Shown here piece after piece: positions 9,234-50,790 of a stretch of 64,000 nucleotides of DNA. The stretch covers positions 1 to 64,000 of IMG/VR virus record IMGVR_UViG_3300046781_000054, one strand, 5' to 3'. Every line of letters begins with the position of its first letter. The stretch's first letter is position 1. The notes beneath the pieces were generated by a model. It was given only the letters and a program-made list of their open reading frames with translations. It was not told the DNA's origin and made no database searches. Source of the DNA: a virus. The translations under genes were made by a program, and so were the position numbers.

Positions 9234-9265
9234 CCATGGCTATGCAATGCGTTATGGGTTACAGT
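9234..9265 (+). promoter_or_regulatory. conserved promoter/operator, copy 1
   Basis: TGGCTA-TGCAATGCGTTATGGGT-TACAGT, 17-bp spacer, after a terminator-like hairpin. Confidence 0.75.
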
Positions 9266-9298: not shown

Positions 9299-9559
9299 AT
9301 GACTACCGCTACCCAGCCCGCCGTCACCCTCACCAAGGACGCCGTCACCCTCTACGACATCGAGCAGGGTGTGGTCTGGGACCAGATGAGCCACCGCCAG
9401 ACCCTCGCAGAACTCGCGGGCAGCAAGAGCGTCGGCGACACCGTCCAGGAGTACGAGACCACGGATCGCAACGGGCACCCCATGCGGGTCGTCCTTCAGG
9501 TCGGCGCCGAGGCGTACTACTCCGAGGACCAGGGCGGCATCTACGAGTTCACCCTCTGA
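9299..9559 (+). CDS. hypothetical protein
   Basis: first gene after the conserved promoter. Confidence 0.75.
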   Translation: MTTATQPAVTLTKDAVTLYDIEQGVVWDQMSHRQTLAELAGSKSVGDTVQEYETTDRNGHPMRVVLQVGAEAYYSEDQGGIYEFTL

Positions 9560-9686
9560 CCCCCACCCCTACTGCTGCCCCGGCCCACCCCTCCAGGGCC
9601 GGGGCAGCCCCCTACCCGAACCCGGGGCAACACCCCGCCCGAACCACGGCAACCTGAACACCCCGACCCTCAACGGGAGTCGCCCC

Positions 9687-9929
9687 ATGACCGAACCGGC
9701 CACCATCGGCAACCTTCCCGCCTCCACCGCCCCACTCGCCGACGGCTACCCACACGTCCACGGCACCTGCCCCGCCTGCCACCACACCGCCCTGTTCCTC
9801 GGCGTCGGCGGCCACATCACCTGCGCCACCGACACCTGCCCCGACTCCGACGCCGCGGGCAGACTCCTCGACACTCCCGACGGCGAAGACGACGCCATCC
9901 ACGACTTCCAGCCCCCGGAGGCCCGATGA
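9687..9929 (+). CDS. small Zn-binding protein
   Basis: CPAC...ITCATDTC. Confidence 0.7.
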   Translation: MTEPATIGNLPASTAPLADGYPHVHGTCPACHHTALFLGVGGHITCATDTCPDSDAAGRLLDTPDGEDDAIHDFQPPEAR

Positions 9930-10339
9930 TCCGCGAGGACAAGTTCCTGATCTCTCGCAAGCCGTTCGCCGTCAACCTCGACAGCTTCCGCCGACGAGAG
10001 CGGGAGCCCGGCAACAGCTGGGCCTGGTTCACCGTCGACGCCATCTGGTTCCGCGGGACCAAGGACCAGCCCGTCGCCTGCATCGGCGACCTCCACACCC
10101 TGATCGACGACCCCGAGCCAACCACCGCGCAGGAGTTCCTTGAGCGGTTCACCGACGGACGCTATGGCGGCAACTGCGAAGGACGATGGAACGGCACCGG
10201 CTACTGGGGAGCCGAAGACCTCGACATCCAGAGGCAGCACCTCGCCGTCCTGAAGCCGATGCTCGCCAACTACCCGGCCCGGCCCGACGGCTGGGACGGC
10301 TGGTGGACGTTCCAGACCCCGAAGGGGCGGCGCCCCTGA
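9926..10339 (+). CDS. hypothetical protein
   Basis: ATGA overlap. Confidence 0.75.
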   Translation: MIREDKFLISRKPFAVNLDSFRRREREPGNSWAWFTVDAIWFRGTKDQPVACIGDLHTLIDDPEPTTAQEFLERFTDGRYGGNCEGRWNGTGYWGAEDLDIQRQHLAVLKPMLANYPARPDGWDGWWTFQTPKGRRP

Positions 10340-10509
10340 TGCACGCCGGGATATCCGACCTGCTGTGGATGTTCTACGCCGTCATCGCCTGGCACGCCCT
10401 CTACGCCGGCGCTGCGGCCACGATCCTCGTCCTCGGCGTCACCGCGGTCGTGTACAGCGTCCGCCACCGCACGACACCCCGCCCAGACGACTACAGGGAG
10501 GCCGCATGA
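10339..10509 (+). CDS. small membrane protein
   Basis: hydrophobic segment, TGATG overlap. Confidence 0.65.
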   Translation: MHAGISDLLWMFYAVIAWHALYAGAAATILVLGVTAVVYSVRHRTTPRPDDYREAA

Positions 10510-10793
10510 CAGCGTCCGCCCAGCTCGCCCTGGACGTGCCGCTTCCCAAGCCGCCCCCACCGCATCCTCCGACGTACTGGGAGAACCGCGGCCCCCACGA
10601 CTGGCAGCCCGTCCTCATCGTCCTCCGCTACGGCAACACCCGCGGCATGCCCGACCCCGCGTTCCCTCACGTACGCACGAAGCCGTCCGCACCCCGCAAC
10701 GTCTGCATCGAACGCGCCGACGGTGAACGGCTCGTCGTCCCCGTCCGCACCCTCCGCCGAGAGAACCCCAACGCCGGAAGGACCAGCCCGTGA
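10506..10793 (+). CDS. hypothetical protein
   Basis: ATGA overlap. Confidence 0.65.
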   Translation: MTASAQLALDVPLPKPPPPHPPTYWENRGPHDWQPVLIVLRYGNTRGMPDPAFPHVRTKPSAPRNVCIERADGERLVVPVRTLRRENPNAGRTSP

Positions 10794-11014
10794 CACCCCC
10801 AGCTCGAGCAGCCGGCACGGGGCGAGACCGCATGCCCCACCCGCCCTCGCTGGATCCCGGCTTCGTGGCGACCGCGAGTGTCGACGCGATCCGGGCCCAG
10901 TACGAGCGGGCGCAGCGCACGGCAGACCTGTGGGACGACCGGGCGCGAGCCCTGTTCCTGCTGCTCTGCCAGCGCGAGGAGCAGACCACCCAGCCCGAGA
11001 GGACCAGCACGTGA
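10790..11014 (+). CDS. hypothetical protein
   Basis: GTGA overlap. Confidence 0.6.
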   Translation: MTPPARAAGTGRDRMPHPPSLDPGFVATASVDAIRAQYERAQRTADLWDDRARALFLLLCQREEQTTQPERTST

Positions 11015-11379
11015 CCGGCACGCACTACGGCAACGACCAGATGGGCGCCCCCACCCTGCACCGCGGCCGCCTCGAGAACTGTCCCGCCCCCGACCGCCAG
11101 GACATCCTCACCGACCAAGCCGAGGAAGACACCACCCCGTACTGCACCGGCGATCGGTGCGGAGACTGCGAAGCACCCGACCCTGGTGACACCTACGGCG
11201 AGACCGACTGCTGCGAAGCCACCTGTGGCTGCTGCCCCCGCGTCAACGAACACGGCAACTGCGCCCTTGCCCCCGGCTCGGAAGACAACTCCAAGTACTG
11301 CGACCAGCACGGTGAGGGCTGGCTGTCTCCGCTGAACGAGCGGGCGCAGCGCATGTACGACGTCCTCCGCAACGCCTAA
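11011..11379 (+). CDS. Cys-rich hypothetical protein
   Basis: GTGA overlap, many Cys. Confidence 0.65.
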   Translation: MTGTHYGNDQMGAPTLHRGRLENCPAPDRQDILTDQAEEDTTPYCTGDRCGDCEAPDPGDTYGETDCCEATCGCCPRVNEHGNCALAPGSEDNSKYCDQHGEGWLSPLNERAQRMYDVLRNA

Positions 11380-11396
11380 CCCGAGAGGACCAGCCC

Positions 11397-11897
11397 GTGA
11401 CCGAGCAGCACGAACCACCGACCCACTGCTTTATGTGCAGCCACCCCGTCGAAGCCCACGACCAGGACGCGGACGGCAACCGCCCCTGCCGCTCCCCCGG
11501 CCACCCCAAGGGCGTCCCGTGCGCCGACTGCCGTGCCCTGCTCACCTCCGAGTACCGCAAGCGCCTTCAGGACGAACGGGAACAGCCCGGCTTCGAGAAG
11601 GCATGGCACGCGTTCCTCATCACCCGCGACGACGCTAGTCAGGCGTTCGGGGAGCACGCGCCTGTGTTCTTCACCGATATTCACCAGTCCGCTCTGGCTT
11701 CCGCGTTCATCCACTTCCGGGCAGCGGTACTGAAGCCCCTGGCGGACCTCCACAGCCCCGTACAGCACATGGGGCAGACCTGGTGCCGTGAATGCTCCGT
11801 CCAACGCTCTACGGGCCCGCACAGCGAGGAGTGGGTGGCGTACATCCCGCACCCCTGCCCCACCATCGACGCGCTCACCGAGAGGCTCCGCCCGTGA
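11397..11897 (+). CDS. hypothetical protein with Cys/His clusters
   Basis: CFMC..H, CADC, CREC. Confidence 0.7.
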   Translation: MTEQHEPPTHCFMCSHPVEAHDQDADGNRPCRSPGHPKGVPCADCRALLTSEYRKRLQDEREQPGFEKAWHAFLITRDDASQAFGEHAPVFFTDIHQSALASAFIHFRAAVLKPLADLHSPVQHMGQTWCRECSVQRSTGPHSEEWVAYIPHPCPTIDALTERLRP

Positions 11898-12262
11898 CCG
11901 AACAGCCGTGCCCGTTCTGCGAGATCAACGTAGGGCACCTCCCCGCCACGTTCGTCGACGAGTGGTGCGACGCCTTCGCAATCGTCCCGATCAACCCCGT
12001 TGTCGACGGACACGTCCTCGTGATCCCGAAGACGCACACCCCCGACTTCGGCCACGACCCGGACGTGACCGCGGCCACGATGAAGCGCGCCGCCCAGTTG
12101 GCGCAGAAGTCGGACCAGCCCATGAACCTGATCACCAGTCGCGGTCGGGAGGCGACACAGTCCGTGTTCCATCTCCACGTGCACCTCGTTCCCCGCGCGG
12201 AGAACGACGGGCTGGCCCTGCCCTGGTACAGCGGCAAGCACTCGAAGAGGAGCAGCGCGTGA
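11894..12262 (+). CDS. HIT family hydrolase
   Basis: CPFC...GHVLVIPK...QSVFHLHVHLVPR histidine triad. Confidence 0.92.
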   Translation: MTEQPCPFCEINVGHLPATFVDEWCDAFAIVPINPVVDGHVLVIPKTHTPDFGHDPDVTAATMKRAAQLAQKSDQPMNLITSRGREATQSVFHLHVHLVPRAENDGLALPWYSGKHSKRSSA

Positions 12263-12666
12263 CCGAGCAACTGCCTGAGACGACGCTGCTGGTCTGGTAC
12301 TGCGGACGATGCCGCAAGTCCTGCAAGGTCCAGCCGCCGGACGCCGAGCAGATCGCCTGCACGTGCGACACCCCCGTACCGAGCCTGCGCCCCACCCGTA
12401 TGACCGTCATGCACGCCCCGAAGCGGCGACCGGTACGGGCCATCAGCGACGAGGAAGGCAGGCTGCGGGCGCTCGGCCGGAAGGGCACACGCGTCCGCGT
12501 CACGTACGAAGGCGAGATCGCGGACGCCTGGGAGTGGTCCAACGGCATCTCCCGCGGCCTCGACTTTGTGGTCAAGTCACCCGACGGGCGCACCCACACC
12601 GTCAACGGCAGCCAGCCCGGCCTACGCATTGAAGCTATCCCGGCCGACGAGGAACCTGCGGAGTGA
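12259..12666 (+). CDS. hypothetical protein
   Basis: GTGA overlap. Confidence 0.65.
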   Translation: MTEQLPETTLLVWYCGRCRKSCKVQPPDAEQIACTCDTPVPSLRPTRMTVMHAPKRRPVRAISDEEGRLRALGRKGTRVRVTYEGEIADAWEWSNGISRGLDFVVKSPDGRTHTVNGSQPGLRIEAIPADEEPAE

Positions 12667-12878
12667 GGCGCCCGATCCGGAAGCGGGACCTGCAGGCCCG
12701 CATCGAGCGCCTGGAGAAGGCTCTCGGTACGCCGCTCCCCGCCCCGCTGCCGGGCCAGCAGACCATTCCCCTCCCCACCATCGGCCACCACGTGTACGAA
12801 GGCTCAGGCGGCGACTGTGAAGCCGAGTTCTTCGCCATCCCGTGCGGCCAACCCCGCGACGCCCACCACCACCCGTAG
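12663..12878 (+). CDS. hypothetical protein
   Basis: GTGA overlap. Confidence 0.6.
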   Translation: MRRPIRKRDLQARIERLEKALGTPLPAPLPGQQTIPLPTIGHHVYEGSGGDCEAEFFAIPCGQPRDAHHHP

Positions 12879-12886
12879 GAGTAGCT

Positions 12887-13372
12887 ATGGCCGACGACCC
12901 GGAGCAGCGGACGGAGGCGCTCGCCGAACTCCTCTGCCACGCCTACGAGTACGGCGGCGGCCTCGAGGAGCAGCAGGCAGAAGACCCGCAGCGCGCCCAG
13001 GAACACCAGGGCGCGGCCGCGTTCCTGCTGTCCAAGCTGGAGCAGGCCCCGTTCAACGAGAAGCGGGCCGCGTTCCGCCGCGGCTACGACCGCGGCACCG
13101 AGAACGCGAAGAAGGCGGCCGCCGAGCACACCGCCCAGCTTGAGGCGGCGCTCGCCGAGCTCCGTCAGGACCGCGACCCCGACAGGCTGCGGGCCCGGAT
13201 CGCCGACCTGGAGTACGTCGTCCACGGCTACGGACGTCTCCACAAGCCCGGCACCGACCTGCGCGGCCAGCTCGCCGACGCCCTGGCCCGCCTTCAGGCC
13301 GCCCAACGGGAACTCGCCGAGCTGCGGGGTGTCCAGCCGTCCGACGCGACCGGGGAACGCCCCTCGGCCTGA
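12887..13372 (+). CDS. coiled-coil hypothetical protein
   Basis: AGGAG RBS. Confidence 0.7.
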   Translation: MADDPEQRTEALAELLCHAYEYGGGLEEQQAEDPQRAQEHQGAAAFLLSKLEQAPFNEKRAAFRRGYDRGTENAKKAAAEHTAQLEAALAELRQDRDPDRLRARIADLEYVVHGYGRLHKPGTDLRGQLADALARLQAAQRELAELRGVQPSDATGERPSA

Positions 13373-23488: not shown

Positions 23489-24100
23489 TCACGCAGCCTG
23501 CGAGTACAGGCGGCGGGCCATCTCGGCGAAGTAGCGCTCGCCCTCGCCGACGTTGGTGATGCCGGCGTCGACCATGTCGCCGAGGAGACCGACGAACTGG
23601 TACGGGGTCATCGCGTTGATGTGGGCGACAAGGTTCACGTCGGCGCGGCAGTCGTCGATGTGCTTCTCCCAGGACCGGAGTGCGGCGCCGGCGGTGCGGA
23701 AGATGGCCTCACGGTCGGCGTTGTACATGCCCGGGTTGTAGCTGGCTTCGGCGATCAGGTTGATGACGTCGCGGTGGCCGTCGACGGTCCACTTCTTGCT
23801 GTTGAAGCGGCGGGTGCGGGGGCCGATCTGAAGGTAGGAGCGCATCTCGCGGGCGAAGTTCTGGCCGGTGGTGGAGGCGGCGGCGAGCTGGGCCGCCTTC
23901 TCCTCCTTGCGTTCGGCGGCGATCAGGTTGTCGGCCGCTTCCTGGGCGGTGTCGCCGTGGCCGGCGAGCTCGCCGCGGGTGGCTCGCCACGTCATGTTGG
24001 GGCGGAGGCGGAGGGTGATGTCCGAGGCGGTCCAGGTCACGGCGTTGGTCGAGGTGAGGGGGGTGTGGGTGCCGTTGATGGTGATGGCCTCGGTGTTCAT
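23489..24100 (-). CDS. hypothetical protein, first gene after conserved promoter
   Basis: AAGGGAG RBS. Confidence 0.75.
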   Translation of the reverse strand: MNTEAITINGTHTPLTSTNAVTWTASDITLRLRPNMTWRATRGELAGHGDTAQEAADNLIAAERKEEKAAQLAAASTTGQNFAREMRSYLQIGPRTRRFNSKKWTVDGHRDVINLIAEASYNPGMYNADREAIFRTAGAALRSWEKHIDDCRADVNLVAHINAMTPYQFVGLLGDMVDAGITNVGEGERYFAEMARRLYSQAA

Positions 24101-24134: not shown

Positions 24135-24166
24135 AACGTAACCTATAACGCATTGCATAGCAATGG
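24135..24166 (-). promoter_or_regulatory. conserved promoter/operator, copy 2
   Basis: TTGCTA-TGCAATGCGTTATAGGT-TACGTT. Confidence 0.8.
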
Positions 24167-30212: not shown

Positions 30213-30244
30213 ACCGTAACCCATAACGCATTGCATAGCAATGG
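30213..30244 (-). promoter_or_regulatory. conserved promoter/operator, copy 3
   Basis: TTGCTA-TGCAATGCGTTATGGGT-TACGGT. Confidence 0.8.
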
Positions 30245-30264: not shown

Positions 30265-30300
30265 AGAAAACCCCTCACCCGGGGTCCGGGGGTGAAGGGT
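30265..30300 (-). terminator. intrinsic terminator upstream of promoter copy 3
   Basis: hairpin followed by TTTTCT on minus strand. Confidence 0.55.
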
Positions 30301-30327
30301 CACAGGTGATGCGGTCGAGCCGGCCGG

Positions 30328-32503: not shown

Positions 32504-33604
32504 CTAGGAGACCGTGGTGAGGAGTTCCTTGAGTTGTTCGTCGTTGCGCTCCGCGGCCTGCTTGAACAGGTAGGAGAGCAGCGTGAAGAACTCCGGGTCG
32601 GCAACACGTTCCCGAATCAGCCGTGCCACATACCCGGGCTGATCCCATGGGACGGGCCGAGCGTTCTGCTCCGCGGTCGTCTGCTCCTCAATCTCTGGAG
32701 CAGACGACAGCTCTTGCCCCTCCGCGTCCGGGGCAGGATGCTCGGTCCGCTGCTCGGGAAGCCCCTCCCCTGCTCCGCCAGCCGCTGCGGCGCCCGCGTT
32801 CAAAACGGCGTTTTGAACAGCACCGGCCCCCGCGTCGGGTTCCGACGCAGGCGCGGGGGACTCGGTCTTCAAAACGGCGTTTTGAGAAGCTGCCTTCTTA
32901 CGAGGCTTCGGCGTCTTCGCCGCCGCCTTGATCGCCTCAACCTGGGCGCGCTGCTCCTCAGGCTTCTTGGATGCCAGACCGCGGACCTGACTCGGCTTGA
33001 CCGCGCCGGCCTCCAGCTCGGCCCTCACCTCGTCGTCGAGCTTGAGGAGAGCGAGCCGGTGCGAGACGTACATCTGCGTCTTGCCGATGCGTCGTCCGAC
33101 CTCTTCCTGGCTGCCGTGCTTCTCCACCATCCGCTTCAGGAACTCGGCCTCCTTGATGGGGTCGATCTGCTTGCGGTGGATGTTCTCGATGATGACGGCG
33201 TCGTCGAGCTGGTCGTCTTCGCCGAGCCGGTCCTGGACGCGGATGTCGATGCGGGTCCAGCCGAGCTGGCGGGCGGCTGCCAGGCGGCGGTTGCCGGTAA
33301 CGACGATCCAGTCGGCGCCCTCAACAGCCTTGGCGAGCTCGGGCTTGGACATCACGTAGCGGGCGTGGGAGACGACCGCGAGCGGTTGCAGCTGTCCGAC
33401 CTCGCGCATGGTGTCCATGAGTTCGGCGAACTCAGGGTCCGCGTCGGTGTAGTCGTCGGCCAGACGGGGGTTCTCCGGGTTGCCGGTGATGGTGTGCATG
33501 AGCACGGTGGTCGGCGGTGCGACCGGCTTGTCGTCCGGTGTAGCGGTGGTTGCCTTGTCGTCCTTGCCGAGCAGGCTTGTGAAGCTCTTTTGCCTGTTGG
33601 ACAT
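32504..33604 (-). CDS. parB: ParB partition protein
   Basis: NPENPR...GQLQPL...GNRRLAAA...ENIHRKQI; HTH SQEEVGRRIGKTQMYVSHRL. Confidence 0.93.
   Translation of the reverse strand: MSNRQKSFTSLLGKDDKATTATPDDKPVAPPTTVLMHTITGNPENPRLADDYTDADPEFAELMDTMREVGQLQPLAVVSHARYVMSKPELAKAVEGADWIVVTGNRRLAAARQLGWTRIDIRVQDRLGEDDQLDDAVIIENIHRKQIDPIKEAEFLKRMVEKHGSQEEVGRRIGKTQMYVSHRLALLKLDDEVRAELEAGAVKPSQVRGLASKKPEEQRAQVEAIKAAAKTPKPRKKAASQNAVLKTESPAPASEPDAGAGAVQNAVLNAGAAAAGGAGEGLPEQRTEHPAPDAEGQELSSAPEIEEQTTAEQNARPVPWDQPGYVARLIRERVADPEFFTLLSYLFKQAAERNDEQLKELLTTVS
32798..32818. promoter_or_regulatory. parS-like palindrome 1 (inside parB)
   Basis: GTTCAAAACG-G-CGTTTTGAAC. Confidence 0.75.
32868..32885. promoter_or_regulatory. 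parS-like palindrome 2 (inside parB)
   Basis: TTCAAAACGGCGTTTTGA. Confidence 0.75.
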
Positions 33605-34335
33605 CAGCGGCCCTTCCTTCCGGCGCCGATCTCCAGGGCGAGCTTGTAGAAGTCCTCGCGGGCTTCCATCGCTACTCGGTTCTTCTTGTAGCGGGTGACG
33701 ACGAGACCTTCGACCGCCGCCCTCGTGTGGATCTTGTAGTGTCGGATGACGGTCTTGGCGAGGTTCCAGCCGTTGCCGAGAACGTACGCTCTGGTGTCTT
33801 CAAGGTCTGCCGTGCCGTCGCGGGGGTCCCAGTTGTTGATGACGACCCAGTACTGCTTGCCGAGGGGGCGGACGACCTGCTCGATGGTGTCGCGGGTGGG
33901 GATGAAGCCGAGCGGCTCGGGTTCGATGGGGACGATGATGTCGTCGGCGACTGTGAGCACGGCGCGCATGGCGTCGGCGGCGGCGCTCTTGCCGAACGGG
34001 TCGCCTGCTTGCTCTTGTTCGTCCTCGGGGAGGTCCATCCACCCGGGGGTGTCGATGAACGCGTGCTTGATCTTCTTGGACTTCTTCAGCTCGGGGAAGA
34101 AGTCGAGGTCCTTGCGTGTCTTGGTCTGCACGAACGAGAACGGCAGGTCGTCGCCTACCTGCTCGGACCACCACGTGGCCGACCCCTGCGGGTCGCTGGA
34201 TACCGCGACGACGTAGTCGGGGTCGTCGGCGGGGGACTCGCCGAGCACTTCGGCGGTGGTGGCGGATGTGTTCACGGTGAGGGTCGACTTGCCGACCCCG
34301 CCCTTGCGGTTAACGACCGCAGTGATGCGTGCCAT
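33604..34335 (-). CDS. parA: ParA partition ATPase
   Basis: deviant Walker A KGGVGKST; DPQGS; IDTP. Confidence 0.95.
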   Translation of the reverse strand: MARITAVVNRKGGVGKSTLTVNTSATTAEVLGESPADDPDYVVAVSSDPQGSATWWSEQVGDDLPFSFVQTKTRKDLDFFPELKKSKKIKHAFIDTPGWMDLPEDEQEQAGDPFGKSAAADAMRAVLTVADDIIVPIEPEPLGFIPTRDTIEQVVRPLGKQYWVVINNWDPRDGTADLEDTRAYVLGNGWNLAKTVIRHYKIHTRAAVEGLVVTRYKKNRVAMEAREDFYKLALEIGAGRKGR

Positions 34336-34461: not shown

Positions 34462-34480
34462 TTCAAAACGCCGTTTTGAA
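34462..34480. promoter_or_regulatory. parS-like palindrome 3 (upstream of parA)
   Basis: TTCAAAACGCCGTTTTGAA. Confidence 0.75.
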
Positions 34481-42583: not shown

Positions 42584-43543
42584 TCAGTCGGTTCCGGCCG
42601 TCAGGCCGTACTCCTCGTCAAACAGCTCTTCCAAGCCCAACTCGTTCGCGAGCCAGCCCGTACCGATCGTCTGCGGCGACACCCGGTACTTCAGCGTCTG
42701 CTGCAACTCGGCCGCCTTCACCCGCACCGACGCGAACAGTTCCGCATCCACATACGGGCTCAACAGCTTCCGCTCGTACGTCGACCCGGGCGCTGCCTTC
42801 GGCACCGGCCACGGCTCCCACTCACCGGCGAGAACCTTCCGCAGACCCTCCTCAACGATCCGCCGCAACTCCGAGTCCGTGTTGTCCAGCCCCGCCAGAA
42901 TCGCAGCATGCAACTGCGGCGGCACCGGCATGTTCATCAGAGCCAGATCACTCTTCGGCACCTCGTAGGCGACACCGAACTCCTCGCACAGCAGCGCCGT
43001 CGCCATCTTCGGCACCGTCGCCTTCGCCTCGTACCCCAGCCGCCGGCCGATCTCCGCGACCTGATCCCGCATCCGAGCCAGCAGCTCCATGTCGACGGGC
43101 ACGTTCAGGTTCACGCGTTCCACGGCGGAATTGCGGGGGCTGCGCGGAATCTCGACCGGCTCGGCCTCACCGTCCAGGACAGCCCTGAACCGGTCGTTGA
43201 GGGCCTTGCCCAGCAACGCGGACACGCTCTTGCCCGGCTGCTTGGCCGCGCTCTGCAGAGCTGCACGCAGCGGCTCCGGCATCCCGATCGCCAGGTTCTG
43301 CGTCGTGTCCTCACTCAGATCGCCGGCGCGCTCGTCGTGCTGCAGCATCCGGAACCCGAACGGGGAACGCAGCTCCTCCAGCGTCGCGGCAACCTCGGGC
43401 AGTTGCCCCTCGACGGCGTCAGCGGCCAGCTTCAGGTGCTCGCGGACGGTCTCAACACTCTTGCTGCGGCGGGGCACGGGGCGGGTCCTCTCGGCGGAGC
43501 GCCCGGTGCGGCGGTGCGGCGGGCGCGTGGGGGTATTGGCCAC
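42584..43543 (-). CDS. putative repressor with tandem ribbon-helix-helix units
   Basis: internal duplication with four beta-helix-helix-like segments. Confidence 0.65.
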   Translation of the reverse strand: MANTPTRPPHRRTGRSAERTRPVPRRSKSVETVREHLKLAADAVEGQLPEVAATLEELRSPFGFRMLQHDERAGDLSEDTTQNLAIGMPEPLRAALQSAAKQPGKSVSALLGKALNDRFRAVLDGEAEPVEIPRSPRNSAVERVNLNVPVDMELLARMRDQVAEIGRRLGYEAKATVPKMATALLCEEFGVAYEVPKSDLALMNMPVPPQLHAAILAGLDNTDSELRRIVEEGLRKVLAGEWEPWPVPKAAPGSTYERKLLSPYVDAELFASVRVKAAELQQTLKYRVSPQTIGTGWLANELGLEELFDEEYGLTAGTD

Positions 43544-43554
43544 GCCATCATCCT

Positions 43555-43567
43555 CCATAACGCATTG
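43555..43567 (-). promoter_or_regulatory. operator core overlapping RBS of RHH gene
   Basis: CAATGCGTTATGG. Confidence 0.7.
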
Positions 43568-43623
43568 GTGGACCAGAGGCGGCTGGTGCCGTCCCGGTGG
43601 TCACGACGATACGCACAAACCCC

Positions 43624-43652
43624 TTGCTTGTCCATGCGTTATGGATTACGTT
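43624..43652 (+). promoter_or_regulatory. conserved promoter/operator, copy 4
   Basis: TTGCTT-GTCCATGCGTTATGGAT-TACGTT. Confidence 0.75.
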
Positions 43653-43686
43653 CTAAGTATTCCAACTAGCAAGCGGGGGCACCCAC

Positions 43687-44112
43687 ATGAAGCACACCCA
43701 CAGCCAGCCGGCCACCAAAACCCTCGCCGACCTGTACCGCGCCATCGACCACCGCCGGGCAGTCACCATCACCTACCTCAAGCCCGGCGAGACCGAGCCC
43801 ACCGTCCGCACCATCGAGATCGCCGAACTCCGCACCGCCAGCGTCAAGGTGCGCAAGGGAGAACTGACCGGCGGCGGCATCGTCATCGTCGCCATGTGCC
43901 GGCTCCGCGGAGAGCGCCGCGAGTTCCACCTCTCCGGCCTGATCTCGTACACCGTCCACCGCATCGGCTACGTGCTGACCATGCCGCCCAACACCACCTA
44001 CGAAGCCCCCGTACCCGCGCCCGTCGACGACGTCCAGGCCCTGTTCTTTCACGAGCTGGCCCGCGACCGCGACGACGCCGACTACCGGCCCCGCGTACGT
44101 CTGGCGGCCTGA
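43687..44112 (+). CDS. stand-alone WYL domain protein
   Basis: LYRAIDHRRAVTITY...TVRTIE...AMCRLRGERREFHLSGL. Confidence 0.8.
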   Translation: MKHTHSQPATKTLADLYRAIDHRRAVTITYLKPGETEPTVRTIEIAELRTASVKVRKGELTGGGIVIVAMCRLRGERREFHLSGLISYTVHRIGYVLTMPPNTTYEAPVPAPVDDVQALFFHELARDRDDADYRPRVRLAA

Positions 44113-44254
44113 CCAGGGCCCACAACGAAGAAAGCCACCGACTCCGCATGGAGTTGGTGGCCAATCCTGATGGGCGCACGCCCGATTCGACGGAAGTCTA
44201 ACCCGGGAACGCGCCACCGATCAAGAAACTCTCCAAACTGGGGGAACGCTCAGC

Positions 44255-45187
44255 ATGCAGCAGTACGCCGTCAGATGCGGATGCGGCCGAACCATGAACC
44301 TGTACGGGCGCGCCGGCCGCAATGCCTTCCGCTGCGGATGCGGCACACGCGTACAGGTGGTGGCGGCGCCCGTCACCACCCGGATCTGCACGTTCGGAGA
44401 ATGTCGCACCCTGGCGACCACCAAGGAACCGCTGCGTTTCTGTCCCGAGCACGAGGAGCAAGCATCAACTCTGCTCGCCCACACCGCTGGCGCCGTCAAA
44501 GTGCGGGAACTGGAGATAGGCCTGACCCAGGGCGAGACGACATGGGCCCGCAGGTACGGATCCAGGATCCGGCGAGGCCCGCAGGACACGGCGCACGCCC
44601 CGACCGTCTACTTTGCCCGCAAAGAACACCTCATCAAGATCGGGACCACGACAAACCTGTATGTCCGGATGGCGACTCTATACACACAGGCCCTGGCAAC
44701 AGAGCCCGGCGGCATCGTCCGTGAACGTCAGCTGCACCGCCGCTTTGGGCACCTGCTAGCCCCTGGGCGAGGACGCGAATGGTTCCACCCGGAGCCCGAA
44801 CTGATGGAGTACATCAACGAACTCCGTACCGCATCCGGAATCCCGCCGGTCGGCAGCCCAGCGCCGCCCATAGGTCAATACGTAGAGATTGACACCTACC
44901 TGGCAGAGACCACCGAACAACGCCCTGTCCGGACACTCACGCAGAACGGAGAACCCCTGGCCGGTCGAATGGTCATGGAGAAGCTTGCCCGATCCCACCC
45001 TCGCTCGCAGGTGCACGCCGCCGTTACAGGTACGTGGCAGACCCGCAGACTTGCCGTGGCAGCCTGCACCCCGTCCAGGGAGATTGGTGCCGGATCAGGA
45101 GGTCTGGTTACCGCCTCCACGGTGCCCAGCCGAGACCTGTGTAACCGGCTTCCCTGCCTTGCCCGCTGGGACACGTTGACCGACTAA
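44255..45187 (+). CDS. GIY-YIG (T5orf172/MUG113-like) protein with Zn ribbon
   Basis: VYFA...IKIGTT.NL..R...ERQLHRRF...EWF. Confidence 0.8.
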   Translation: MQQYAVRCGCGRTMNLYGRAGRNAFRCGCGTRVQVVAAPVTTRICTFGECRTLATTKEPLRFCPEHEEQASTLLAHTAGAVKVRELEIGLTQGETTWARRYGSRIRRGPQDTAHAPTVYFARKEHLIKIGTTTNLYVRMATLYTQALATEPGGIVRERQLHRRFGHLLAPGRGREWFHPEPELMEYINELRTASGIPPVGSPAPPIGQYVEIDTYLAETTEQRPVRTLTQNGEPLAGRMVMEKLARSHPRSQVHAAVTGTWQTRRLAVAACTPSREIGAGSGGLVTASTVPSRDLCNRLPCLARWDTLTD

Positions 45188-45243: not shown

Positions 45244-45432
45244 ATGACCCGTCAGGAAGCCCTCACCGAGCAGCCATCCGGCCCCCGCCGGCGCGTCTGG
45301 TGCCGCGGCTGCCGCAAGGAACTGACCGACCCCGACAGCCGAACCCGCGGCTACGGCCCCGAATGCGATCCCGACACCCGCGCCGGCCACGAACGGCGCG
45401 ACGCCGACCAAGACCCCATCCCCGGACTGTAG
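45244..45432 (+). CDS. DUF6011-like small Zn-binding protein
   Basis: CRGCRKELTDPDSRTRGYGPEC. Confidence 0.75.
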   Translation: MTRQEALTEQPSGPRRRVWCRGCRKELTDPDSRTRGYGPECDPDTRAGHERRDADQDPIPGL

Positions 45433-50485: not shown

Positions 50486-50790
50486 GCGAATAGCGTGGCA
50501 CGGTTCCGCAGAAGTGTTCCCCCCGCTCCACCCGAGGGAGCACCCCGCGGAAATGACTGTGGCCCCTCCGCCAAGAGGGGCCACTACGCAGTCCGACCGT
50601 TCCACCGCACCTGGCCAGAACCATCAGTGAGGAGAGAGTAGCAGGGCGCACTGACAGTCGGCTGCCTCCGGCGCCCCAGTCTTGAAAGGGCGTCAGATTC
50701 TTCGTCAGGAGCGATTCTCCGCTCGGACCCGATCAAGCGGACGGACGTTGCCCCACTTTCCGAATCCAAGGATTTCTTGGATTTCAAGCA

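Follow-up and report, generated by a model that had tools for sequence, protein, structure and literature searches.

We analysed a 64,000-nucleotide stretch of viral DNA (the window; bases 1-64000 of IMG/VR virus record IMGVR_UViG_3300046781_000054, which is 92,058 bp long and rated complete) that is, on sequence grounds, the left two thirds of a pZL12-like Streptomyces plasmid-phage. Two divergent genes of this element encode a 319-amino-acid (aa) protein of four ribbon-helix-helix (RHH) units and a stand-alone WYL protein. With a probability of roughly 55%, we read the four-RHH protein as an element-specific repressor of four promoters (P1 to P4) and of its own gene, and the WYL protein as a short-lived switch component. 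The predicted regulon of repressor and operators is well supported by comparative evidence but not proven.

In the proposed mechanism, the four-RHH protein would bind a predicted site of ~13-20 bp, with C(C/A)ATGCGTTATGG as its invariant part, placed between the -35 and -10 elements of four strong promoters of the housekeeping type. Of these, P1 to P3 would drive strings of early genes and P4 the WYL gene. A further predicted site (O2) lies at the ribosome-binding site (RBS) of the RHH gene itself, and the P4 site (O1) would cover the -35 element of an overlapping leftward promoter of the RHH gene; with sites in these places, the RHH protein would turn off the WYL gene along with three early operons, and would hold down its own production. 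The WYL protein, which lacks a DNA-binding domain and would set no operator specificity, would be a dosage-sensitive part of the switch, set free once repression gives way. Its target could be single-stranded DNA (ssDNA), RNA or the RHH protein, at the conserved tail of its N terminus. We know of no description of the lysis/plasmid decision circuit of pZL12-like plasmid-phages.

Operators and promoters

The 11-nt core ATGCGTTATRG occurred five times in the window (9247, 43634, plus strand; 24143, 30221, 43555, minus strand), each copy exact in a scan that permitted one mismatch, against a chance expectation of 0.28; none of 100 shuffles attained five (0/100), and the full 92,058-bp record held no copies beyond those five. 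All sites lie within the left 44 kb, among early and plasmid genes, and the late region is without any. The 29-nt promoter pattern TKGCTW-N17-TACRKT was found four times (9237, 43624, plus strand; 24163, 30241, minus strand), with 0 expected, and every copy holds the core in its spacer. When aligned, P1 to P3 were near-identical across ~32 nt and P4 was more divergent. A 13-bp palindrome, ATTGCTATGCAAT, lies over the -35 element in P1 to P3 (P1 has the variant ATGGC) and is kept only partly in P4 and O2; the operator copy in P4 is an inverted repeat, TCCAT-N5-ATGGA.

P1 (9237..9265, plus strand; TGGCTA-N17-TACAGT) has its core at 9247-9257 and a near-palindrome at 9236-9248, and heads the genes at 9299-13372. 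P2 (24135..24163, minus strand; TTGCTA-N17-TACGTT; core 24143-24153, palindrome ATTGCTATGCAAT at 24152-24164) heads a minus-strand gene run starting at 24100. P3 (30213..30241, minus strand; TTGCTA-N17-TACGGT; core 30221-30231, palindrome 30230-30242) heads the genes from 30145 down to 24233, including those for a WhiB-HTH (helix-turn-helix) protein and a single-stranded DNA-binding protein (SSB). In a gene map based on GC content at third codon positions (GC3), the genes behind each of these three promoters were mostly small and formed a run on the promoter's own strand. Intrinsic terminators with GC-rich hairpins and U-runs lie immediately upstream of P2 and P3 (24185..24212, minus strand, after the SSB gene; 30269..30301, minus strand), both sitting within a continuous minus-strand gene run, and a weaker terminator-like hairpin lies upstream of P1 (9155..9194, plus strand).

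P4 (43624..43652, plus strand; TTGCTT-N17-TACGTT) stands before the WYL gene, with O1 (CCATGCGTTATGG, 43632-43644) in its spacer. On the opposite strand is a candidate promoter of the RHH gene (43606..43634, minus strand; TGGACA-N17-TATCGT), the -35 element of which overlaps both the P4 -35 element and O1; it is kept as TGGACA-N17-TACAGT in Streptomyces sp. LUP47B, and most relatives have a TAnnnT box at the corresponding position. The fifth copy of the core, O2 (43555..43565, minus strand), would form part of the leader if leftward transcription starts as proposed. It borders on the RBS of the RHH gene, in the orientation opposite to that of the P4 copy; its minus-strand reading is ATGCGTTATGG-AGG, and it therefore runs into the GGAGG RBS of that divergent gene. 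The WYL gene is followed by a perfect 12-bp hairpin (44134..44161, plus strand) and so forms a one-gene unit.

Much of this layout had been described in the initial annotation, made from the letters of the window: four promoters with a shared operator in the spacer, hairpins before the first three, strings of small genes behind those three, and a fifth, inverted core at the RBS of the RHH gene. Each was recovered here, including in the motif scan of the whole element that the annotation had named as a check, with the qualification that the hairpin at P1 is weaker than those at P2 and P3. The annotation did not include the division of the RHH protein into four units, the leftward promoter that overlaps P4, the palindrome across the -35 element or the conserved LAA tail of the WYL protein.

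The four-RHH protein

The RHH gene (42584..43543, minus strand) starts at a GTG at 43543 after the GGAGG RBS. An alternative ATG at 43558 (open reading frame [ORF] 42584-43558) gives 324 aa; gene callers elsewhere use the GTG. The 319-aa protein had no Pfam or PHROG match, single-protein pattern searches for RHH relatives returned nothing, and nor did PDB sequence searches with the RHH and WYL profiles. Its layout comprises a basic disordered N-terminal tail, three helices and strand-helix-helix units at residues 81-123, 143-189, 200-238 and 259-301, and the AlphaFold2 (AF2) model (six-homologue alignment; mean predicted local distance difference test [pLDDT] score, 79.7) has four such units.

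The sole high-probability Foldseek matches were to TraY of the F plasmid (probability 0.9-0.99). A second structure aligner, independent of Foldseek, also placed TraY top (Z 7.7, 97 residues aligned, root-mean-square deviation 3.4), followed in rank order by the RHH-WYL protein 6oaw_B (Z 6.5), permuted single-chain Arc (Z 6.2), DndE, VirC2 and AvtR. Four of these, TraY, single-chain Arc, VirC2 and AvtR, are known to carry a pair of RHH units on a single chain, and residues 81-192 superpose on them with Z-scores of 7.7, 6.2, 3.9 and 3.8, respectively. Units 1+2 aligned with units 3+4 in hhalign (probability 99.2%, E 3e-19), unit 1 pairing with unit 3 and unit 2 with unit 4, and the protein is therefore a duplicated two-unit module. 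On the modelled structure, it belongs to the RHH fold, its single chain holding four units, as many as two RHH dimers. The RHH assignment made in the initial annotation thus stands on the model and its TraY and Arc matches; the product is not a small RHH protein, however, but has four units in 319 (or 324) aa.

A profile search over 1.8 billion representatives gave an RHH family of 209 clusters with full-length and half-length (160-200 aa) forms; beside WYL genes, ~60% of the family members are of the half-length form. The best-conserved part of the family is the N-terminal tail (54% mean identity versus ~30% in the RHH units), which overlaps conserved regulatory DNA; in the present protein it is a basic, Pro/Arg-rich tail at residues 1-25 (window 43468-43543, minus strand). 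To judge from its sequence, the tail may be a partner-docking or minor-groove arm, or may reflect constraint at the DNA level beside the RBS.

Comparative evidence

Four complete genomes were compared: the present element, ZL12, G003 and LUP47B (Streptomyces sp. LUP47B scaffold25). All four have element-specific operators at three or four distal promoters and two more in the control region. LUP47B carries five CCAT-N5-ATGG sites (CCATGnnnTATGG), two in the control region and three inside promoters of the TTGCTA-N17-TACGGT type; ZL12 carries six CGTATTGC-N3/4-GCAATACG palindromes (~0.2 expected), and G003 has five operator sites. The first gene behind P3 (120 aa) follows an equivalent promoter in 4/4 of these genomes.

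A recurrent plan was seen across 45 control regions fetched via the WYL gene: the RBS of an RHH-family gene, O2 immediately beside it and, ~70 bp on, O1 inside the WYL promoter, with a TAnnnT box on the opposite strand placed so that the O1 arms (ATTGC/GCAAT) supply the -35 elements of both divergent promoters. Operator statistics were computed on the 42 distinct regions. O1 and O2 matched at 11.4/14 positions within an element versus 9.8/14 between elements, and 0/5000 permutations reached the observed value. Operator similarity correlated with RHH similarity at rho 0.22 and with WYL similarity at rho -0.02, over element pairs that are not independent of one another. Pairs with similar RHH proteins shared 15/16 operator bases, even with differing WYL proteins; pairs with similar WYL proteins and different RHH proteins were at background (11.4/16). 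Because O1 and O2 co-vary and track the RHH protein, not the WYL protein, these comparisons support the RHH protein as the likely autoregulated operator binder, as first proposed. From the motifs, folds and co-variation together, we infer binding and repression.

Several points weigh against this reading. The sites are physically linked to the RHH gene, so joint inheritance could account for part of the co-variation of operators with RHH proteins; by itself, however, linkage would not point to the RHH protein, since O1 is nearer the WYL gene than the RHH gene. A TATGG immediately ahead of the -10 element is found again in relatives whose operators differ, and may belong to the promoter, and ATGGAGG recurs before many RHH starts. 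Part of the 11-mer may therefore be promoter or RBS context, and the exact limits of the operator may be blurred. The fold Z-scores of 6-8 are moderate, and single units in isolation gave Pfam RHH matches that all stayed below threshold (for unit 1, Antitox_RHH, the best, 16.4 bits with a cut-off of 27.2; RHH_5, 13.5 bits with a cut-off of 26). A hairpin that follows the RHH gene did not reach significance (z -1.39).

It is very unlikely, in our judgement, that the element has no dedicated repressor at all, the repeats being copies of one strong promoter cassette and the four-RHH protein serving, for example, as a TraY-like relaxosome or partition accessory. TraY is indeed the best fold match, and much of the 29-nt similarity is promoter sequence common to relatives; yet O2 has the core without a promoter of the P1-P4 class, and in LUP47B, O2 still keeps CCATGGCGTATGG at a distance of 17 nt from the RBS, with no promoter of that class around it. 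O1 and O2 also co-vary within elements, the operators track the RHH protein, and there are relatives with palindromic sites. Two other candidate binders were considered. The WYL protein was rejected, since it is HTH-less, since operator type and WYL similarity do not correlate and since two relatives that keep the control-region layout are without WYL; a host factor is unlikely, given that the operator sequence is element-specific.

The WYL protein

The WYL protein (43687..44112, plus strand; 141 aa) comprises a WYL domain at residues 12-83 (PF13280, 29.8 bits versus a gathering threshold of 21.8), a C-terminal helix, an acidic DDADYRPR motif and a terminal LAA. WYL is its sole Pfam family, and it had no PHROG match. 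Its AF2 model is of low confidence (pLDDT 63.8); the best Foldseek matches were PafBC, BrxR, CapW and DriD (probability 1.0), and no sequence-level alignment to solved WYL proteins or their ligand sites was obtained. With the domain beginning at residue 12 of 141 aa, the protein is HTH-less, as the initial annotation had it, and no HTH family was found in 403 clusters of WYL homologues (77-247 aa searched; longer, fused forms not searched for). Most of the homologues listed are 132-166 aa long. As many of the 403 clusters come from 85-100-kb Streptomyces contigs and plasmids, pZL12-like plasmid-phages appear common in Streptomyces.

An LAA C terminus was present in 40/45 fetched WYL loci and 34/37 aligned homologues, regardless of the length of the preceding linker, compared with only ~1-2% of the other predicted proteins of these phages. 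The transfer-messenger RNA (tmRNA) tag of a Streptomyces host ends in ALAA, so that the C terminus of the WYL protein mimics the end of the host tag in the manner of an ssrA-like degron sequence. Because the two ends are the same, the WYL protein is probably short-lived and degraded by ClpXP.

In two relatives (LUP47B, L015:2530-2865, minus strand; G164, L081), the WYL gene is replaced by a gene for an unrelated protein of ~112 aa with an arginine-rich N terminus and a C-terminal YRP(R/K)...LAA, as in the WYL tail. The replacement protein had no Pfam or other family match, and an ESM Atlas look-up of the LUP47B protein gave many unnamed actinobacterial relatives. Both elements keep the control-region layout without WYL, and one shares the operator type of the present element. 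Since the WYL protein and its replacement both end in LAA, the protein at this position seems to need a short life, and the WYL protein looks like a short-lived switch protein. From the conservation of LAA we infer proteolysis, and all WYL action is put forward below in conditional form.

The initial annotation had proposed that the RHH protein is an immunity repressor and the WYL protein a trans-acting DNA-damage sensor or antirepressor, in a switch with no need of a CI peptidase. In the full scheme considered here, the WYL protein would sense ssDNA and inactivate the RHH protein, and induction would be independent of RecA/LexA, with positive feedback. As a sensor or antirepressor, the WYL protein is a reasonable guess, and we regard the full scheme as a tentative possibility. 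Its fold matches the ssDNA-sensing regulators PafBC, DriD and CapW, its gene lies behind the operator, so that derepression would be self-reinforcing, and the LAA tail would hold its basal level low. The conserved N-terminal tail of the RHH protein could serve as a common docking site, the element has no CI/LexA-type repressor, and the matches of the RHH model include RspWYL1 (Z 6.5), in which RHH and WYL are fused. Against it, WYL and RHH similarities correlate weakly (rho 0.13), and WYL proteins keep 65-90% identity even where the RHH proteins and operators next to their genes have been swapped. Two relatives of the same layout carry the unrelated LAA-tailed protein in its place, and a sensor repressed in the lysogen, its own gene being behind the operator, is awkward. 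There is no sequence-level match to solved WYL ligand sites, and the fold likeness comes from the low-confidence model (pLDDT 63.8).

A bolder proposal, which we consider rather doubtful, is that lone WYL proteins are ClpXP-controlled, nucleic-acid-sensing antirepressors whose docking site is the conserved N-terminal tail of RHH repressors, single-chain or dimeric, that are otherwise highly divergent; hundreds of Streptomyces phage-plasmids would then have a common RecA/LexA-independent switch with interchangeable immunity specificities.

The independence of WYL conservation from RHH type would also suit a role away from the RHH protein. The WYL protein and its arginine-rich replacement would, on that account, act on RNA or ssDNA, perhaps as an antiterminator through the terminators before P1 to P3 or as an accessory of replication or recombination. 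The WYL fold is Sm-like and binds nucleic acids, the N terminus of the replacement proteins is basic and Arg-rich, and P2 and P3, within one continuous minus-strand run of genes, each have a terminator directly ahead of them. However, no nut-like RNA element emerged, the replacement protein has no family match and the basis is purely positional; we consider such a role unlikely.

The roles of the two proteins may instead be reversed, the four-RHH protein being an early lytic shut-off regulator (Cro- or Arc-like) of the early promoters and of itself and the unstable WYL protein a CII-like factor favouring the plasmid-prophage. The RHH gene opens a long leftward run of genes, recombination and methylase genes among them, the lone WYL gene is in the usual position of a repressor gene, beside the integrase region, and decision factors typically undergo rapid proteolysis. 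Replication and parAB genes, which the plasmid state requires, belong to that run too, however. The WYL protein has no DNA-binding domain and operator type does not track it, and no other repressor candidate with matching sites was found; we consider the reversal improbable.

Other repressors and DNA-damage inputs

PF00717 (S24 peptidase) had no match in the 92-kb record, where the sole PF01381 (XRE) match was sub-threshold (14.9 bits) and inside the ParB-like gene. Judged by these profiles, the element is without an S24/CI-type or XRE repressor, in agreement with the earlier proposal of an induction switch that needs no CI peptidase. An SOS-box scan gave no site near the RHH/WYL locus. P4 was also considered as a PafBC (RecA-NDp) promoter; the likeness is superficial (TTGTCCATG, with 10-nt not 8-nt spacing) and was judged to be due to chance.

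An exact PafBC (RecA-NDp) promoter motif, TGTCAGTG-N8-TACTCT, lies elsewhere in the window (50635-50656, minus strand; ~0.1 expected by a rough estimate), ~150 nt upstream of the gene for a multi-HTH protein (49823-50485/50605), and a hairpin and a GGGGAACA box (~50520) stand between motif and gene. Host-sensed DNA damage could enter at this 50.6-kb PafBC-type motif instead of the RHH/WYL locus.

Relation to known systems

In P22 immI, the RHH repressors Mnt and Arc bind operators inside overlapping divergent promoters, one of which drives a small trans-acting switch protein (ant), and a tetramer-equivalent of RHH units binds a two-part operator. The arrangement predicted here is alike in having RHH operators in overlapping divergent promoters, one driving a small switch protein. 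It differs in that four RHH units are in one polypeptide, the operator recurs at three early operons in distal positions, the product of the divergent gene is a WYL protein with no Ant/KilAC Pfam match and there is no separate CI/C2-type repressor.

The regulon also resembles those of P1 C1, the L5 gp71 stoperators, the phiC31 CIRs, omega of pSM19035 and KorA/KorB of RK2, in which one repressor acts through scattered sites on several operons, including its own gene; omega is likewise an RHH protein and binds repeated 7-bp units. In contrast to these multi-operator regulons, the present one has only 5-6 sites, all of them, O2 apart, within promoters that belong to a single sequence class. The protein is unlike C1, gp71 and the phiC31 repressor in fold and arrangement, and no sequence relationship was detected.

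TraY, AvtR, VirC2 and engineered single-chain Arc have two RHH units per chain, forming a pseudo-dimer like that of residues 81-192; the present protein instead has two pseudo-dimers with a conserved N-terminal tail and a helical domain. The lone WYL protein shares the WYL domain and fold with PafBC, DriD, BrxR, CapW and RspWYL1. Unlike the HTH-WYL-WCX class, it has no HTH and no full WCX, is 141 aa long and bears an LAA tail, and unlike in RspWYL1, an RHH-WYL fusion, RHH and WYL are here encoded by separate divergent genes that recombine independently. In the integration-dependent immunity of mycobacteriophage BPs and its relatives, a regulatory protein of the immunity locus ends in a tmRNA-tag-like AA/LAA, suggesting control by ClpXP. 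In the present locus the tag is on the WYL protein and not on the repressor or integrase, there is no attP inside the gene and the element is a plasmid-prophage.

A literature search, covering sources other than the original pZL12 paper, found no natural four-unit RHH regulator and no lone degron-tagged phage WYL protein. The locus is a compact candidate switch, combining a predicted natural single-chain four-RHH repressor of swappable specificities, promoter -35 elements built into the operator and a degron-tagged WYL protein that lacks any DNA-binding domain. Its elucidation would reveal the way in which a WYL module works once separated from an HTH, and the locus could supply orthogonal repressor/operator pairs for Streptomyces engineering.

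Element and neighboring genes

The window contains tail genes and genes for an endolysin, a tyrosine integrase, a single-strand annealing protein and a C5 methylase, together with ParA/ParB-like and replication-initiator-like genes. The region around the RHH/WYL locus is syntenic with the Streptomyces plasmid-phage ZL12/pZL12, in which pZL12.30c and pZL12.31 occupy the same divergent positions as the RHH/WYL pair. Protein comparison of the four complete genomes indicated mosaic ancestry: the virion genes (58-92 kb) are 45-80% identical to those of ZL12 and G003 and have almost no counterparts in LUP47B, and the RHH regulator and promoter/operator type are nearest to LUP47B.

A palindrome, TCAAAACGSCGTTTTGA, occurs three times (32802-32814, 32871-32883 and 34465-34477) within or just upstream of the ParB-like (32504-33604) and ParA-like (33604-34335) genes; the three copies are probably parS or partition-operator sites. 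ZL12 has an analogous palindrome, GGTTTACCGCGGTAAACC, twice (8841 and 10390), on either side of its parAB homologues.

Between the WYL terminator and the next genes is a 310-aa ORF (44255-45187, plus strand) with N-terminal CxC...CxC motifs and a weak MUG113/T5orf172 match (23.5 bits); its GC3 coding signal is weak, and it may therefore be degenerate or recently acquired. It is followed by a small DUF6011 protein gene (45244-45432, plus strand; 42.4 bits), of which G003 has a homologue at the same relative position near its WYL gene.

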